From the sequence record MK373782.1: a DNA stretch of 64,000 nt. The stretch is one strand, 5' to 3'. Below the pieces are notes generated by a model, which saw only the letters and a list, made by a program, of their open reading frames with translations, was not told where the DNA came from and did no database searches. Both the position numbers and the translations under genes were made by a program. Positions within the stretch are counted from its first letter, which is position 1. Every line of letters starts with the position of its first letter. Of the stretch, positions 1 to 41,352 are shown piece by piece. The DNA is from Escherichia phage vB_EcoM_KAW3E185.

Positions 1-1563
1 GTCAAAACGATAATCAACATCTAATGGTTCGTCAACAGAAAGATTAGGATTATGCAATGCCTCTTTAATTATTTCACCATTACGTTGAGCTGCAAGCATA
101 TAACCTTTATGTTCTTTACGTTGATTAAAGACCTTAGTGATTTCAGTTGGAACTACACCATCACGGTCTTTATAATACATCATGCCGTTAGGAGAACAAC
201 TGTACACATCTGAAGGACGTTCAGCGATTGCGTTAATATAATCATGCAATGGAGCTACTTTAAACGTTCCTGCTATTGTTTCCGGGCTAATATTCACTTG
301 GCGAATAATACTTGGATACAGAGATGTAAGGTCGAAACTCATTACATATTTGTATCGATTTGGAATAGGTTCCTTAACAAAAGCGCCAGGATAAGGTTGA
401 ACCGGGTGAGAACGACCTTGTGGAATCACCTTGTTTTGTTCTTTAAGGCTATTAAAAATAATAGCATCCCAAGTTTTAATTGGACTGAACACAGATTGAA
501 TCTGAATTTTAGCATAATAACCCATGTCCAAACTCAAGTTGATGAACTGACGCTTAGCATCAATTTGCAATACACGATACACGTCGATAATGTTATAAGA
601 AATATATCGTTGGTGATTGCTTTCACGAAGCTTAGAAATAGGGCCGTCATATTTCAGTTTACCAACGTTCAATTCAAATTCTGAAATGTAATCCAGAGAA
701 TACGACGGTTGGTTCGTGAAAGAGAACTTTTTGTAAAGGTCAATGTAATCAAGAACAGAGATACCGAACAATGTAATGATTTCACGAGAACCATACATGT
801 TTTCGATAACTTTAACACGAGTTTTACGATGTGGTGATAAACGTTTCGCAGTAGATTCGCCAAAAATATTCTTGATTCGGTTATACACATATGGAATATC
901 AAATGACTCAACGTTCCATCCAGTCAAAATGACAGGAGTTTTCTGTTGCCAGAAGTTGAGATATTCCATCAACAATTCTTTTTCGTTATCGAACGGCATA
1001 TAAATGATTTTATCGATAATTTCGGATGGAACTTCATCACCACCTTGTTCTTGAAGCTTAGCCGCAATTTCGATAGACCATTCTTCTACATTACCATATG
1101 GAGAATTCAATAGATCAAATACGTAGAACCTGTCGTCAATTGAGTCATAATGGGTGATAGCATCAATCGGATGTTTTGCTTGTGACGGCTCAGGGAACCC
1201 ATCCGGAGATGTTACTTCGATGTCGAAGTTAGCCACACGAATTTTTGTATGGTCGTATTTGATTTCATAGTTATAAGTGTCAGACAAATACGCCAATTTG
1301 AAATCGTCCATGCCAAGTGCTTCAAGTCCGATATCTTCCATGCGTTTAATCCATTGGGAGGCATCACGCATATTAGCGAACAACTTACGAGTACACGGCT
1401 TACCGTAGATATCGAAATATTTCGTAGCCTGACTTTCTGGACAATGAGCAAACAGTGATGGTTTATATTCTACTTCACGAGTACGTTCACGGCCATTAGA
1501 ATCGATGTAACGTTCAAAAATTGAATCACCAATCTGTTCAACCGTTAAGTAAAATTCTTTCAT
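1..1563 (-). CDS. 43: DNA polymerase gp43, N-terminal 521 codons (gene runs off the window edge)
   Basis: ATG at 1563-1561; translation begins MKEFYLTVEQIGDSIFERYID, matching my recollection of T4 gp43 (MKEFYISIETVGNNIVERYID); in frame to position 1; lies downstream of regA as in T4. Confidence 0.9.
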   Translation of the reverse strand, partial: MKEFYLTVEQIGDSIFERYIDSNGRERTREVEYKPSLFAHCPESQATKYFDIYGKPCTRKLFANMRDASQWIKRMEDIGLEALGMDDFKLAYLSDTYNYEIKYDHTKIRVANFDIEVTSPDGFPEPSQAKHPIDAITHYDSIDDRFYVFDLLNSPYGNVEEWSIEIAAKLQEQGGDEVPSEIIDKIIYMPFDNEKELLMEYLNFWQQKTPVILTGWNVESFDIPYVYNRIKNIFGESTAKRLSPHRKTRVKVIENMYGSREIITLFGISVLDYIDLYKKFSFTNQPSYSLDYISEFELNVGKLKYDGPISKLRESNHQRYISYNIIDVYRVLQIDAKRQFINLSLDMGYYAKIQIQSVFSPIKTWDAIIFNSLKEQNKVIPQGRSHPVQPYPGAFVKEPIPNRYKYVMSFDLTSLYPSIIRQVNISPETIAGTFKVAPLHDYINAIAERPSDVYSCSPNGMMYYKDRDGVVPTEITKVFNQRKEHKGYMLAAQRNGEIIKEALHNPNLSVDEPLDVDYRFD

Positions 1564-1644
1564 TTAATTTCCTTTAGACGAGTTATTGTCTTTTGTTTGT
1601 TGATGAACTTATTATACTCCAAATGGGACCGAAGTCCCATTGCT

Positions 1645-2013
1645 TTAATTACCAATTGTATATTTTGCTTTCAAAGTCCAGTCATCTTTCTGTTTAAAAG
1701 AGATAACACGGAAGTTATTAGTCAGGCCAAACAGATCTTCACGAGCAGAGTCTTCAATAACAATCAATCCCCAGTCTTCAAGCAACTGGGCAATCGAATC
1801 ACGTCGCTGATAGTCTTCACCGTTAATATCAACCTGACGTCCATCCATACGCAACATTTCTTTAAAGTGGACGATGTAGTATTTACCTTGCTTTTGGAGG
1901 ATATGACAGGACTGATAAAGAACTTTATCCTTGTTATTAGCGATGCCCATACGGGTCAAAGTCTCTTTGACTTTCAGAAAATCTTCGGGGTTCTTCAATT
2001 TAATTTCAATCAT
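1645..2013 (-). CDS. regA: translational repressor RegA (122 aa)
   Basis: ORF 1645..2022; ATG at 2013 gives MIEIKLKNPEDFLKVKETLTRMGIANNKDKVLYQSCHILQ..., near-identical to recalled T4 RegA and of the same length. Confidence 0.9.
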   Translation of the reverse strand: MIEIKLKNPEDFLKVKETLTRMGIANNKDKVLYQSCHILQKQGKYYIVHFKEMLRMDGRQVDINGEDYQRRDSIAQLLEDWGLIVIEDSAREDLFGLTNNFRVISFKQKDDWTLKAKYTIGN

Positions 2014-2015
2014 TT

Positions 2016-2579
2016 TTACCATTCCAATGCTAATTTTTTAAATTGTTTTTGTTCTTTTACATTTTTTGTAACTTCTTTGAGAAACTCATCAGTGACCATG
2101 GCCTTCAGTTCTTTAAGGACTATTGGCAACTTGTTATTTTTTTCAAGGAGCCGCTTATACTCGGTAGCATCATTCATGTTGATTGTGTAACGTTTCATCA
2201 ACAGTTTGATAACTAGTAACTCTGAAGTGTCTTCGACTAGTTTAGCCCATTTAGAGAATCGACGACCACGTGGAATTGCCGCCATCATATAGTTGAAGTG
2301 CGCTTCATCACTTAATTCAGAACCGACTAAGTTCATCATGTAAACAGCTGGCATACATTCCGGGAACTGGGATAATGAGTTCTCAACCATAAATTTTGAG
2401 TAGTCGACCTGAGCAATTGACATAGATTTCTTTTCATTAATAGCATTAATGATTTTAAAGAATTCATTCTCAGGTTTTTCTTTAAACATGTCAGCACATT
2501 TTTGAATCGCATCAGCGTCATTAGACTTCCATGCAATTTGGTGCTCGTTAAGTTGGACGTCATCATCAAATAAGTTCAT
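2016..2579 (-). CDS. 62: clamp loader small subunit gp62 (187 aa)
   Basis: ATG start; length and position between regA and 44 match T4 gp62. Confidence 0.85.
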
Positions 2580-2580
2580 A

Positions 2581-3543
2581 TTATTTCCAAGACAGTTCGC
2601 AGGTCAGTTGAAGAAGCATATACATAACATGTAATTCAATATTACTTGCTAATCCATGAAACTTATTATTTTCGCCTGCAATTTCATAAAGCGAAATAAT
2701 ACTTTTACCTGGCGCAACTTTGTCATAACACTCAGAAACTAATTTATCGATGAACCATGAATAATCTGCGGCATATTTTGGAGCTAATGCACGAAGCTGT
2801 TTGATATCTTTGTTCTTCATTGCTTCGATAACATCATCTACCGTGCCACGATCATTGGTTACAATCGACAAAATACCTGCATCAAGAACACCTTTAGACG
2901 AGTACTGGTCTAATTGACCAATTGTACGTCGAAAGTCTGGGAAGTTCTTTTTAACCAGAGCTGCAACAACTTTCATATCAGCGATTTCGATATTTTCGTT
3001 CTTACAGATTTCAACCATGCGATGAATCATTTTCTTCATCATTGAGATTTTATCTTCTTCGGTTGGACGTCCGAATTCGATAACTCGACAACGACTACGT
3101 AACGGTTCGATAATTCCATCGATGTTGTTGGCAGTAATAATAATAGAACAGTTACTAGAGAATTCTTCCATGAATGTACGAAGGTGACGTTGTGATTCAG
3201 CGAGGCCACTACGGTCAAATTCATCAATAACAATAACTTTAGGCTTGCCTTCCATTGAGACTGAACGAGCGAATGCAGTTAATGGACCACGCACAAAATC
3301 AATCTTACAATCAGAACCGTTGACGAACATCATTTCGGCATTGATATCATTACATAATGCTTTTGCTACGGTTGTTTTACCGGTACCAGGAGATGGAGAG
3401 TGTAAAATAATATGAGGAAGTTTTCCTTTAGATACTAAAGACTTGAATGTTTCATGGTCATACGCAGGCAGAATACATTCGTCAATGGAAGAAGGACGAT
3501 ATTTCTGTTCTAGAATGTGTTCTTTGGAATTGATAGTAATCAT
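2581..3543 (-). CDS. 44: clamp loader ATPase gp44 (320 aa)
   Basis: Walker A motif [15 protein letters not shown]; AAA+ clamp-loader layout; directly upstream of 62 as in T4. Confidence 0.9.
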
Positions 3544-12856: not shown

Positions 12857-13072
12857 TTAAGCCTTTTTATCAAGAACAGAATTCAGTTTATTAGTAATTT
12901 TGTCCAAACGTTCATTGAATTCGCTGGAGGATAAACCCTTTTCTGGAGAAATTAAACTAATCACGAAAAATACACCAGTAAAAGGAATAAGAAAAATAGC
13001 TCCAACTGCCATAAACAGAAAGAATGTTACAGTTGTAAGAAAATCAGCTAAACCTTTACGAAATTTATACAT
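12857..13072 (-). CDS. hypothetical small membrane protein (71 aa)
   Basis: Hydrophobic stretch FLFMAVGAIFLIPFTGVFFVISLI; ATG start. Confidence 0.45.
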   Translation of the reverse strand: MYKFRKGLADFLTTVTFFLFMAVGAIFLIPFTGVFFVISLISPEKGLSSSEFNERLDKITNKLNSVLDKKA

Positions 13073-13190
13073 TTACATTTACCTTTAATTGATTAACCAA
13101 GCATTGATAATCATTAAACTATATTGCGAATAAAATTCTGGACCAAAACGAAAAATCATATCATTTATAGTATCCATAATGTAATTCAAT

Positions 13191-13661
13191 TTAATCATGT
13201 TTCCACACCCCATCGGTATTTGACCAAAGTCGCTGATTATCTGATCCTCGCCACAGCTTTTTAGTCGGAAGATTTTTCTCATACTTCCCATCAATAATAA
13301 CATCAACATATTTAAGCATTTCTAGTTGTTTAATATCTTCAAACTTATATCCTGTCCACAACCAAATGCTTTTATTGGGATAAAGATTTTTTACTGTTTG
13401 AGCAATGCGATGAATAACATCTCGGTTATCAGGATAGAGAGGGTCTCCTCCGGTTATAGTTAATCCTTCTATATAATCATTATTCAAACATTCAATCAAT
13501 TGTTCTAGTGTCTCTCCAGTGAATGGAATACCATTTCTAGCATTCCATGTTGATTTATTATAACACCCTTCACATTTATGCAAACAACCTGTAACGAAAA
13601 GAACGACCCTGCATCCAGGGCCATTCACAAAGCAGCACGGGTATATTCTGTCATAATTCAT
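13191..13661 (-). CDS. nrdG: anaerobic ribonucleotide reductase activating protein NrdG (156 aa)
   Basis: Radical-SAM-type cysteine cluster CLHKCEGC; ATG at 13661 gives MNYDRIYPCCFVNGPGCRVV and the T4 NrdG length; start overlaps the upstream stop (ATGA). Confidence 0.9.
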   Translation of the reverse strand: MNYDRIYPCCFVNGPGCRVVLFVTGCLHKCEGCYNKSTWNARNGIPFTGETLEQLIECLNNDYIEGLTITGGDPLYPDNRDVIHRIAQTVKNLYPNKSIWLWTGYKFEDIKQLEMLKYVDVIIDGKYEKNLPTKKLWRGSDNQRLWSNTDGVWKHD

Positions 13662-14488
13662 AATAATATCCAATTTTTCCAAGCTTCATCAGTAGAATTA
13701 CAGCGTTTTAGTATAAGATGTCTAGAAACTTTTATGGCATTTGAGCACTTTTTAATTGAATCATACTTAATACCGTCAACTGAAACGGTTTTGCTAGTTG
13801 GAGAAATTTTTCCATACATTGGATTTTTTGAACCAACTTGAAGTCCTTTTAAAGCTTTTGAAAGCTTTTGTCTAGATTCCAATGACATGGGAGAATTCTT
13901 TTTACCTTCAATAATTCGCTTGCGATGAAGTTCGCGTTCTTCTTCACTCAAAGAATTGTAATATTTTTTAACACCGTTTGATATAGATAATTTATCTTTC
14001 TCAGACCGCTCTCCAGCTAATTTACTTCTAACATCTTTTCGCTTCATAGCTATGCTTACGGCTTTATTTAAATTTGCTTGATGCTCTGGCGTACGTTTAT
14101 ATTTCTTTAAAGCACGTGAAATAGCTATTTTAGTTTCTTCTGTTCTCTTTTTACCTTTATTTGCTAAACTATTTTTGCGGCGATGTTCAAGTGTCTGTTC
14201 ATAGGCAGTTCCACCTTTTCCACCAGGTTTAATATTATATGTATTTTCTTTTAGACAATACTCTTCGGTTACGAGTTCAGCTTCTTTATCATACATTTGC
14301 TTTTCATTATCAAAAACATATAAAATTTCTTTATAAAAATTTTTTCTACCATATTTTAATAAAGCAGCACGAATCAATGTTCCTGATCCCATATAACCGT
14401 CATTTATGTTATCGGTGCTATGCGCACCGATATATTCCTTTGAATTAATTATATTTGTTATTTTATAAATTATATAATACCTATGCAT
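13658..14488 (-). CDS. free-standing GIY-YIG homing endonuclease (276 aa)
   Basis: N-terminal motif YYIIYKITNIINSKEYIGAHS (GIY...YIG); basic C-terminal repeats typical of Seg/I-TevI DNA-binding regions. Confidence 0.8.
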   Translation of the reverse strand: MHRYYIIYKITNIINSKEYIGAHSTDNINDGYMGSGTLIRAALLKYGRKNFYKEILYVFDNEKQMYDKEAELVTEEYCLKENTYNIKPGGKGGTAYEQTLEHRRKNSLANKGKKRTEETKIAISRALKKYKRTPEHQANLNKAVSIAMKRKDVRSKLAGERSEKDKLSISNGVKKYYNSLSEEERELHRKRIIEGKKNSPMSLESRQKLSKALKGLQVGSKNPMYGKISPTSKTVSVDGIKYDSIKKCSNAIKVSRHLILKRCNSTDEAWKNWILL

Positions 14489-15760
14489 GTTTTACTCGTT
14501 TTACCATTTCTTTCATTTTACCTAAATTCCATGGGACAACGCTAGGAGTTCCAAGATATCCGCATGTTCTTCTTATGGTATTCATCTTTTTAGGATCAGT
14601 TTCTCCACAAATAGAACAAACAAATCCGTTTTCAGTAGGAGTCATTTCATGGGTACTTCCACATGTAAAACATTTATCCACTGGCATATTAACACCAAAA
14701 TAATCTAAATGTTGTGCAGCATAATCCCAGACGGCCTCAAGCCCCTTTAAATTGTTTTTCATATCTGGAAGTTCAACATAAGAAATGTGACCGCCTGTCG
14801 CAATGAAATGATATGGGGCTTCGCGAGAAATCTTTTCAAACGGAGTGATATTTTCTTCTACTGAAACATGGAAACTGTTAGTGTACCATCCTTTATCGGT
14901 AACATCTTTTACACTTCCATATTTTTCAGTATCAAGTTTACAGAAGCGATAGCAAAGGTTTTCAGCAGGAGTAGAATACAAGCTAAAAGCAAAACCGGTT
15001 CTTTCGGTCCACTGCTTAAGACGAGCATTCATTTTAGTTAAAATTTCTTGTCCAATATCACGACCGACAAGAATATTCAATTCGTGAATACCGATGTATC
15101 CTAGGGACACTGAACTTCTACCGTTTTTAAATAACTCAATTATATCATCATCAGGTTTAAGACGGACCCCAAATGCACCTTCTTGGTAAAGAATAGGAGC
15201 AACAGTAGCTTTAACTCCTTTTAAGGAACTAATTCTACACATCAAGGCTTCAAAGCACAGATCCATTCGTTCATTAAATAACTCAACAAATTTCTGTTCA
15301 TTGAACTGTGTTCCAATATAAGAATCTAACGCGATGCGAGGAAGATTCAGTGTTACAACGCCAAGATTATTACGTCCATCAAGAATTTCATTACCAGTCG
15401 AATCTTTCCATACACTCAAGAAACTACGGCAGCCCATTGGAGAAACAGGAACTGAAGAACCGGTAATAGCTTTATTATTCTTAACCGAAATAATGTCAGG
15501 ATACATTCTTTTGCTTGCACATTCTAACGCAAGTTGTTTAATATCATAGTTCGGATCATCTTTATAAAGATTAACACCTTCTTCAACAAACATAACAAGT
15601 TTAGGAAAAATAGGAGTTATTCCATCACGACCAAGACCTTTAATGCGGTTTTTAAGAATTGCCTTCTGAATCATTCGTTCAGTCCAGTCAGTTCCCGTAC
15701 CAAATGTAATTGTTACAAAAGGCGTTTGTCCGTTTGAACTAAAGAGAGTATTTACTTCAT
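14481..15760 (-). CDS. nrdD: anaerobic ribonucleotide reductase NrdD, exon 2
   Basis: Encodes EVNTLFSSNGQ... to the C-terminal glycyl-radical motif RRTCGYLG; joining to exon 1 at the inferred splice sites gives 605 codons, the T4 NrdD length. Confidence 0.85.
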
Positions 15761-16805
15761 CATTATATTCAGCATGAGTCGCAAATTCATGCTCGTTTAT
15801 ATGAAACAACAAAATTTGGATAGTCCATAGATATGCAACGTTCTTTTATAGTGCTAGGATGAAAATTTAGCGCTTTAGCTGCTTCTATATAAGACGTATA
15901 CTTAATACCGTCAACAACCACATATTCAGGAACTTTATGAATAGTAGTCTTAATACTCAAAACAAGAGGATGAGTTTCGACTTCACTTTCAGTGCAATTT
16001 AAATATTCCGCTGCTTTTTTAAAACTTCTAAAAGTTTTATTTTTAAGCTTTATCGATACTTGTTTTTTACTTTTTCGACTATTGATATTATTTTGCACAT
16101 GTTCCTTAGATCTTCCGTTTTTAGCATAATATTCAGCTACAGAAGATTTTATATTGTTTTTATGAGATTCGGATAACACTTTACCCTTATGAGCATCTCT
16201 TAATTTTTGAATATGTTCTTCAGTATCCGGATGCTTATAAAACTTTTTACCGCCTATGGATTTATTTAAACATTTTTTGCTATAAAAATATTTACGTATG
16301 ACCTCTTCTTCATGTTTTAATGCATCTTTATAACTATCAAATGTTTTTAAAATTATCCATTTAGTAGGTGTATCAGTTTTTAAGCGTTCATTTATATACT
16401 TAGATGACGTTGTGTAAGTTTTCCAGTTTGTGGGCTTATTTTTAATTGTTCTAAATTTTTTATAACCGATATAAATGTCGCCATTAGAAAACTTAACTAA
16501 GTATGTAAATGCGTCTTTATCTTTTATTTTAGTACAACGTCTTTTTATCCATTTCATTGTTTCACCTCGTATTCATAAGATAATCTTATTTATACAAGAT
16601 GACTGCTGCATGTCGCCATGCAGATTAGACTATATCTTCATCTTTCGATGCCGGCCGTTTCGAATAGCATTAGCTTCTATTCTACACCGCTACATTCATC
16701 ACGGTTAGTCGTTAGGCATTTAGTTCAAAAGAACATTTAGCACGGGATTGTCTACTAGAGAGGTTCCCCGTTTAGACCGGTTTTACATGAGCCTGAATTA
16801 AATTA
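15761..16805 (-). mobile_element. group I self-splicing intron in nrdD (1045 bp)
   Basis: Minus-strand core CTAAACGGGGAACCTCTCTAGTAGACAATCCCGTGCTAAAT at 16735..16775, which I recall from T4 group I introns; 5' exon ends in U, intron ends in G; in-frame stop follows exon 1. Confidence 0.8.
15787..16557 (-). CDS. intron-encoded homing-endonuclease-like protein (256 aa)
   Basis: ATG start inside the intron's 3' extension; degenerate GIY-YIG-like N-terminus (FTYLVKFSNGDIYIGYKKF); Lys-rich with a helix-turn-helix-like C-terminus; no HNH cysteine pairs. Confidence 0.65.
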   Translation of the reverse strand: MKWIKRRCTKIKDKDAFTYLVKFSNGDIYIGYKKFRTIKNKPTNWKTYTTSSKYINERLKTDTPTKWIILKTFDSYKDALKHEEEVIRKYFYSKKCLNKSIGGKKFYKHPDTEEHIQKLRDAHKGKVLSESHKNNIKSSVAEYYAKNGRSKEHVQNNINSRKSKKQVSIKLKNKTFRSFKKAAEYLNCTESEVETHPLVLSIKTTIHKVPEYVVVDGIKYTSYIEAAKALNFHPSTIKERCISMDYPNFVVSYKRA

Positions 16806-17343
16806 ACTCATACGCCTGGAATGCGTCATAGACATCTTTTTCTGTTTTAGATTGAGCATAATTCAACGCATCAGCGATTTGCCATTTTTCTGCATCCTCA
16901 ATATGTTTTGCATAGGTGCGTTTAACATAAGGAGAAAGTACTTTATCTACATTAGCAAAAGTCGTTCCGCCGTATTGATGGGAAGCAACTTGTGCAGTAA
17001 TTTGTGCCATAATTGCAGTAGCAACACCAATAGATTTAGGCGTTTCAATTTGAGCATTGCCTAATTTAAATCCATTCTCAAGCATCCCCTTTAAATCGAC
17101 TAAACAGCAATTGGTAAACGGAAGAGCAGGAGAATAATCAATATCATGCATGTGAATGATTCCGCGTTCATGCGCATTCATAATAAAAGACGGGACCATA
17201 TTTTTGGCAATGTGTTTAGACACAATACCAGCCATAAGGTCCCGTTGAGTTGGAAAAACACGAGAATCTTTATTAGCATTCTCGTTCAAAAGATCTTTAT
17301 TAGTTTTATAAATTAATCCTTCAATTTCTTTTTCAATTTTCAT
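16806..17343 (-). CDS. nrdD: anaerobic ribonucleotide reductase NrdD, exon 1
   Basis: MKIEKEIEGLIYKTNKDLLNENANKDSRVFPTQRDLMAGIV... matches the recalled T4 NrdD N-terminus up to ...DAFQAYE. Confidence 0.85.
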
Positions 17344-17813
17344 TTTAAACTCTTTCTAAGCTGCTTTTTGAATGAAGCTATTAATTGTGTTTTAGTATCG
17401 GATTCATTATATTCAAATCCTCTTTGAAGCATCTCGGACATCATTTCCTCTTTACCTAGTCTTGAGAACTCTTTAGTTTTGTCTGGAACAAAATTAGGAT
17501 GGATATTATTATCAGAATAATCTTGTTTCAAATAAGCAAGAAGAGATTCAAGCCATTCGAGGTAATCAACGTTTTGACCTTTAAGACCAGAACGGTTGAA
17601 CTTATGCTTCATTTGACCTTCTGCTGTGTTGCACAGATTACAGAGTAACCCACGAACTCTACCGGCTTTTGGCCCGTTTAATTCGTGGTCGTGGTCAAGA
17701 TGGTTACCTTGAACATCAGGGTCTAATTCACGGTGGCAAATAGGACACTTACCGTTCTGTGCATCATAAAATTTTTGTTTTTCTTCTTTATATTTTGCGC
17801 CTGATAATAACAT
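17340..17813 (-). CDS. 49: endonuclease VII, Holliday-junction resolvase gp49 (157 aa)
   Basis: Zinc and catalytic motifs CPIC...HLDHDH...CNLCN; length matches T4 gp49. Confidence 0.9.
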   Translation of the reverse strand: MLLSGAKYKEEKQKFYDAQNGKCPICHRELDPDVQGNHLDHDHELNGPKAGRVRGLLCNLCNTAEGQMKHKFNRSGLKGQNVDYLEWLESLLAYLKQDYSDNNIHPNFVPDKTKEFSRLGKEEMMSEMLQRGFEYNESDTKTQLIASFKKQLRKSLK

Positions 17814-41195: not shown

Positions 41196-41272
<77 letters not shown>

Positions 41273-41275
41273 GAT

Positions 41276-41352
41276 TGGTGACCCAGACCAGATTCGAACT
41301 GGTAACCTTTCCCTTATGAGGGGACTGCTGCTAACCGTTGAGCTACAGGGCC
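41276..41352 (-). tRNA. tRNA-Ile (anticodon CAU, Ile2-type)
   Basis: Minus-strand GGCCCTGTAGCTCAACGGTTAGCAGCAGTCCCCTCATAAGGG...TTCGAATC...CACCA; anticodon loop CUCAUAA; called Ile rather than Met from the T4 tRNA set. Confidence 0.75.

Follow-up and report, generated by a model that had tools for sequence, protein, structure and literature searches.

The 276-residue open reading frame at 13658..14488, on the minus strand of the window (the whole 64,000-nt stretch of Escherichia phage vB_EcoM_KAW3E185 analysed here, record MK373782.1), is almost certainly segH, the free-standing GIY-YIG homing endonuclease gene of T-even phages at the nrdD/nrdG junction. The window comes from a T4-like (Tequatrovirus) genome, and over 13000-17500 the closest genome is that of Escherichia phage F2 (97.0%). 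The gene and its replacement of mobC are already known, segH having been named and characterised in 2005; the title of the paper by Sandegren, Nord and Sjöberg in NAR that year places segH in the position of mobC in several T4-related phages. The original prediction had proposed that one endonuclease family replaced another here, and this is borne out, segH and mobC being alternatives in the same slot, although it was already published. Only the census of slot occupants and the hybrid alleles described below may be mildly new; we found no description of this detail in the literature. The locus is arranged as follows, all genes being on the minus strand.

13191..13661, minus strand: nrdG, downstream neighbour of segH (ORF listing; the annotation of relatives agrees)
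13658..14488, minus strand: segH coding sequence, ATG to TGA, 276 amino acids plus stop (ORF listing)
14481..15760, minus strand: nrdD exon 2, upstream neighbour of segH (alignment to the intron-less nrdD of T6)
15761..16805, minus strand: nrdD group I intron, ~1045 nt (boundaries deduced from the splicing needed for an uninterrupted NrdD of 605 aa)
15787..16557, minus strand: I-TevII-like intron ORF, 256 amino acids, inside the nrdD intron
16806..17343, minus strand: nrdD exon 1 (gene order)
17340..17813, minus strand: gene 49, endonuclease VII (gene order)

The coordinates and the motif string given in the original prediction agree with the ORF listing, and so does its description of the two junctions. 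The segH stop codon and the nrdG start codon share the four nucleotides ATGA (13661..13658), and the segH ATG begins at 14488, seven positions before the nrdD stop codon ends at 14481, i.e., the two genes overlap by 8 nt, ATGCATAG. The gene is free-standing as predicted, flanked by a gene on either side and not part of the nrdD intron (~15761..16805), and the distance of about 1.3 kb to the intron-encoded endonuclease is 1299 nt when measured from the end of the intron ORF to the start of segH. Two plus-strand ORFs listed antisense to the segH region, 13578..13841 and 14239..14448, were considered as genes, and no support for them was found.

The nrdD intron has the same insertion point as that of T4, after nrdD nt 538, with a DNA identity to the T4 intron of only 62-84%. 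With 56% identity to T4 I-TevII, its ORF reads as a diverged I-TevII-like variant that is present in JK45 and F2, too. Rfam at its gathering threshold reported no family, group I intron included, over 13000-17600. A match to the late-promoter motif TATAAATA is found at 16594..16587, 30 nt ahead of the ATG of the intron ORF. Elsewhere in the 64-kb window there are two tRNA genes only, Arg-tct and Met-cat, at 41196..41352 (minus strand); T4 has a bigger tRNA cluster in the matching region.

The assignment to segH is carried by close matches at the DNA and the protein level. The segH DNA of the window is 98.0-99.4% identical to three short GenBank records, AY262137 (T6), AY262138 (RB3), and AY262139 (LZ2), all annotated "segH: SegH"; the identity to the RB3 record (AY262138.2) is 99.3%, and this record, which is titled with nrdD, SegH (segH), and nrdG, contains the same two overlaps as the window. 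The annotation of T6 at nrdD/nrdG is "segH: homing endonuclease." Among the 276 residues, 274 match RB3 SegH (ABI48949.1; 99.3%), the two differences being the conservative-looking substitutions N52Y and H57Y in the window copy, and 269 match T6 SegH (97.5%, seven differences). A tblastn search of phage genomes found the SegH protein at 97-99.6% identity in ~70 records. The tblastn matches to annotated homing endonuclease genes (1e-170) and the match to PHROG 314, "homing endonuclease" (1.5e-60), are well past chance level. The SegH proteins of RB3, T6, and LZ2 share with the window the length of 276 amino acids, the nrdD/nrdG slot, the 8-nt and 4-nt overlaps, and the variant nrdD tail and nrdG head; in contrast to T6, whose nrdD has no intron, the window has its segH beside an intron-containing nrdD.

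We give practically no weight to the reading that the gene is segD rather than segH, a name that comes from the label "segD: homing endonuclease" in KM606994 (RB3), KM606996 to KM606999, and NC_025419. RB3's own copy was, however, deposited as segH in AY262138.2, the records of T6, PP01, F2, SYGD1, and KM16 have SegH, and T4 has its segD elsewhere, in the interval from gene 23 to gene 24 (Table 1, PMC2988022). The other seg-like tblastn matches within the same genomes are <60% identical to the window SegH. We take "segD" for a name that was probably passed on automatically, and keep segH. Annotation of this gene varies among records: the genomes of RB3, RB6, RB7, RB9, and RB10 label it "segD," and others call it "hypothetical protein" or "NUMOD3 motif protein." In F2, SegH is annotated from an internal Met (244 aa; extracted-locus 2155..2889), and both the GIY and the YIG motifs are lost.

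SegH is built like I-TevI: a GIY-YIG nuclease domain at the N-terminus is joined by a long, basic linker, which is helical and contains NUMOD3, to a C-terminal helix-turn-helix-like DNA-binding domain. The three parts are placed as follows.

14204..14488, minus strand: N-terminal GIY-YIG catalytic domain, residues 1-95
13814..14203, minus strand: basic, mainly helical linker with NUMOD3 repeats, residues 96-225 (Pfam NUMOD3; predicted helices)
13661..13813, minus strand: C-terminal I-TevI-like DNA-binding domain, residues 226-276

The motif which the original prediction called clear is so only in part. The N-terminus, MHRYYIIYKITNIINSKEYIGAHS, has IIY at residues 6-8, in the GIY position, and YIG at residues 19-21, and the fold matches; however, the general GIY-YIG family of Pfam (PF01541) gave no match to SegH, even at E<=10, and confirmation was needed from the fold. 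The profile search that had been proposed as a check is therefore blank for PF01541 itself and positive by other routes, i.e., TIGR01453, the PF01541 matches of homologues, and the I-TevI fold. TIGR01453, "group I intron endonuclease," covers SegH residues 7-274 at 2e-13 (50.8 bits, below the cut-off of 56.05). SegE_GIY-YIG is at E=0.025 (15.3 bits, below the cut-off of 25), and I-TevI_DNA-bd of Pfam is also below its cut-off, so that NUMOD3 alone passes. Several SegH homologues do carry PF01541 or PF19835, and both the SegE_GIY-YIG and the GIY-YIG domains of Pfam are present among the homologues.

Because PF01541 does not match SegH, membership in the GIY-YIG family was settled by structure. 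A phmmer comparison of SegH with PDB sequences gave chance-level matches only, and the profile of 53 homologues had a sole match in the PDB, the I-TevI catalytic domain, which is weak (E 0.14-0.33). The predicted structure of SegH has a mean pLDDT of 84.5, rising to >93 for residues 1-90. For both domains the best structural match is I-TevI, and Foldseek agrees for both; other GIY-YIG nucleases and the I-TevI DNA-binding domain rank next in the structure search. In the predicted model, the N-terminal domain of SegH is a GIY-YIG alpha/beta fold.

The residues expected at an active site of this kind are mostly in place. Y8, Y19, G21, E69, and N85 are invariant in the alignment of 53 SegH homologues, and in the profile alignment they pair with I-TevI Y6, Y17, G19, E75, and N90, respectively, E75 being a metal-binding glutamate; H23, K45, and K68 vary hardly at all. 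An equivalent of R27, the catalytic arginine of I-TevI, could not be placed: from the YIG motif to helix 1, no arginine is invariant among the 53 homologues, and at this position the SegH subfamily has an invariant D-x-Y-x-G-S-G insert. Position 40, which is K or R in 38 of the 53 homologues, aligns with R47 of I-TevI, not with R27.

The second half of the protein is as basic as predicted: residues 96-276 have a pI of 10.2 (45 K+R vs 19 D+E), compared with a pI of 7.8 for residues 1-95. Pfam NUMOD3 is found at 3.3e-8 (33.8 bits vs a cut-off of 20.4), with its best stretch at residues 200-228 and three stretches at a lax threshold, and the protein is predicted to be helical through residues 100-213. 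Both the NUMOD3 motif and the I-TevI-type C-terminal domain are thus found in SegH. In I-TevI, which is encoded in the td intron of T4 (PDB 1LN0/1MK0 for the catalytic domain, 1I3J/1T2T for the DNA-binding domain), the two-domain design and the long linker are common to SegH. The differences are that SegH is free-standing rather than intron-encoded, shares only ~24% sequence identity with I-TevI, lacks an evident zinc finger, and has a longer linker with NUMOD3 repeats. SegA-SegG of T4 are of the same class and lifestyle as SegH, and the seg-like N-terminal domains are 45-64% identical; their C-terminal halves, in contrast, cannot be aligned with that of SegH beyond the NUMOD motifs, and their insertion sites and targets are other than those of SegH (Table 1, PMC2988022).

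The gene travels with its own versions of the neighbouring coding ends. Among carriers, sequence identity is 98-99% in the segH cassette vs ~94% in the body of nrdD exon 2, a contrast which is what recent lateral spread would give. Junction alignments define two variant flanks.

14481..14552, minus strand: segH-linked nrdD tail, last ~22 codons, TPSVVPWNLGKMKEMVKRVKHA up to the stop
13622..13661, minus strand: segH-linked nrdG head, first ~13 codons, MNYDRIYPCCF... vs MNYDRFYPCDF...

The variant nrdD tail begins just past the glycyl-radical motif RTCGYLG; in the empty-slot and T4 alleles, the tail reads NPNERGFNLGKNKEIMHRVKHQ up to the stop. On the other side, comparison with the empty-slot allele of JK45 gives 80% identity for the segH-linked nrdG head and 99% for the rest of nrdG. 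The segH-type nrdD tail is present in 80 records, 72 of them with segH DNA and eight with mobC, and in none of the 80 is it found beside an empty slot.

We then have a census of ~700 phage records containing the nrdD/nrdG locus, in which the presence of segH is sporadic: 72 records have segH, 32 have mobC, 32 have another HNH gene, and several hundred are empty. The comparison across relatives proposed with the original prediction could have found the same gene in all close relatives, and this is not the case. Common nrdD tail and junction occur in 623 records; after subtraction of the ~46 with either HNH gene, roughly 575 have nothing in the slot. About 80% of relatives have no gene in the nrdD/nrdG slot, and in hundreds of phages nrdD and nrdG overlap directly with nothing between them.

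The HNH-type mob gene that the original prediction placed in this slot in T4 is mobC. It is in the same nrdD/nrdG slot and in the same direction as segH, and it overlaps its neighbours; T4 MobC differs in being of the unrelated HNH family (Pfam HNH 3e-6), in having 210 amino acids, and in that T4 keeps the common nrdD tail. The gene begins with a duplicated nrdG start (MNYDRIY). In a published compilation, T4 mobC (HNH) is placed at nrdG/nrdD, with its activity listed as not determined (Table 1, PMC2988022). The third occupant is a 279-aa HNH gene (Yersinia phage PST, Bas43), and ~22 of its 32 records are close relatives; in Bas43 (TadeuszReichstein) it is at extracted-locus 1869..2708. It is 38% identical to MobC over 60 aa; its beginning duplicates the nrdG start of the common type (MNYDRFYPCDF), and a segH-type nrdG head comes after the gene. 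A parallel case, from the same 2005 paper, is Hef of phage U5, which replaces mobE at nrdA/nrdB. The likeness is that an endonuclease of another family sits in a slot which in T4 holds an HNH mob gene beside ribonucleotide reductase genes; the locus and the nuclease family are different from those of segH.

Among the 72 records with segH DNA, 70 have the gene in full length and the other two represent the deletion remnant of phage PD112 (vB_vPM_PD112). In the remnant, at extracted-locus ~2423..2731, an internal deletion has left 231 of 819 nt; the segH-type nrdD tail is retained, and the nrdG annotation is shortened. PD112 shows an endonuclease gene decaying in place. Decay therefore does occur, and one may ask whether the window copy is itself on this path or domesticated, i.e., an intact ORF whose product has lost its endonuclease activity and which is retained solely for translational coupling of nrdG. 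The gene overlaps essential neighbours at both ends, so that a clean deletion would disturb nrdG expression, and the window allele has two substitutions relative to the SegH of RB3 and F2. These two substitutions, however, are in columns that are variable in the SegH family, and Y is found at both of them (alignment of 53 homologues), and the window SegH has all of the family-invariant residues listed above. Seventy records keep the ORF at full length, with DNA identities of 92-99%. In addition, the hundreds of phages with directly overlapping nrdD and nrdG make segH unnecessary for coupling. We consider a decaying or domesticated copy very unlikely and continue with segH as a homing endonuclease gene: it is sporadic at a fixed site, and the element is better conserved than its flanks, which is the pattern of homing genes.

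In eight mobC records, both flanks are of the segH type, the nrdD tail as well as the nrdG head. These hybrids include SHFML-11, ELT1, BEU50, BCPEco_001, BCPShso_001, BCPSen_003, and 215Ecol030PP; in Shigella phage SHFML-11 the junctions are at extracted-locus 1548..1612 and 2200..2260. The upstream junction falls in the 10-bp CATGCATAGG, which occurs both at the start of segH and in the common nrdD tail, read in different registers. Judged from the junction sequences, the hybrids look like the trace of one gene having ousted the other, mobC taking the place of segH or vice versa. A broader picture would be that three endonuclease genes contest this junction, each with its own flank versions, that the hybrids arose through displacement at microhomology, and that the target, with the nrdD-adjacent Cronobacter homologue described below also taken into account, lies beside the glycyl-radical codons of nrdD; we offer this tentatively, as a possibility we would sooner bet against than for.

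As for expression, a sigma-70 promoter scan gave a single match, inside nrdG, which is fewer than expected by chance, and none at the segH start. No T4 late-promoter motif was found near segH, the nearest being that preceding the intron ORF, and there is no strong Shine-Dalgarno sequence ahead of the segH ATG. With no promoter match and no strong ribosome-binding site, segH is probably read from nrdD transcripts. Its translation probably starts by re-initiation at the ATG overlapping the nrdD stop, and this would hold the level of SegH low. Please note that a perfect 9-bp inverted repeat, TATCGGTGC / GCACCGATA, is present at 14410..14432 over the YIG-motif codons of segH. An mRNA hairpin at this place was considered as a regulatory element and rejected: the start codon is not sequestered, and folding of the region reaches a z-score of only -1.8.

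Going by I-TevI and the Seg enzymes of T4, SegH would use its C-terminal domain and linker to bind a co-infecting genome that lacks segH, at a site in the nrdD/nrdG region, and would then make a double-strand break with its GIY-YIG domain. Recombination-dependent repair would then copy segH with its immediate flanks from the carrier, the outcome being that segH spreads and the markers of the other phage are locally excluded. SegH reportedly cleaves close to its own gene, is said to cut segH-containing and segH-less DNA alike, and segH is said to home in mixed infections, all according to Sandegren and co-workers in 2005. Our own analysis shows the identity, the fold, and the sporadic distribution of SegH, the stronger conservation of the cassette relative to its surroundings, and its own nrdD tail and nrdG head; endonuclease activity and homing come from the literature, and the window allele (N52Y, H57Y) is known from its sequence.

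The position of a distant homologue bears on the target. Cronobacter phage vB_CsaM_leE (Pseudotevenvirus) has a 47%-identical SegH homologue at extracted-locus 2459..3310, downstream of nrdD across a 53-nt spacer and followed by an unrelated gene, with no nrdG. Because this homologue comes directly after nrdD, the conserved association, and hence the target, would be with the 3' end of nrdD, which suggests that the SegH target is at or near that end. The sequence alone does not locate the cleavage site and defines just the limits of the variant flanks.

SegH might in addition serve the phage, either by stimulating recombination or amplification near the nrd genes or by excluding the nrdD/nrdG alleles of competitors. 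A precedent is SegB of T6, which is reported to promote segmental amplification of anti-defence loci (PMC13096335), and the contest of three unrelated endonuclease genes for one slot points in the same direction. On the other hand, there is no sign of amplification or of a defence-related neighbour in the window or its relatives, and most relatives, with an empty slot, manage without any such gene. We regard a benefit of this kind as improbable, and it is compatible with homing, which is the explanation that we retain.

As a discovery, segH matters little here; the use of the finding is in correcting an inconsistent annotation. The nrdD/nrdG locus is a good natural example of selfish nuclease genes competing beside essential ribonucleotide reductase genes, and the hybrid alleles could help to map the exchange points.
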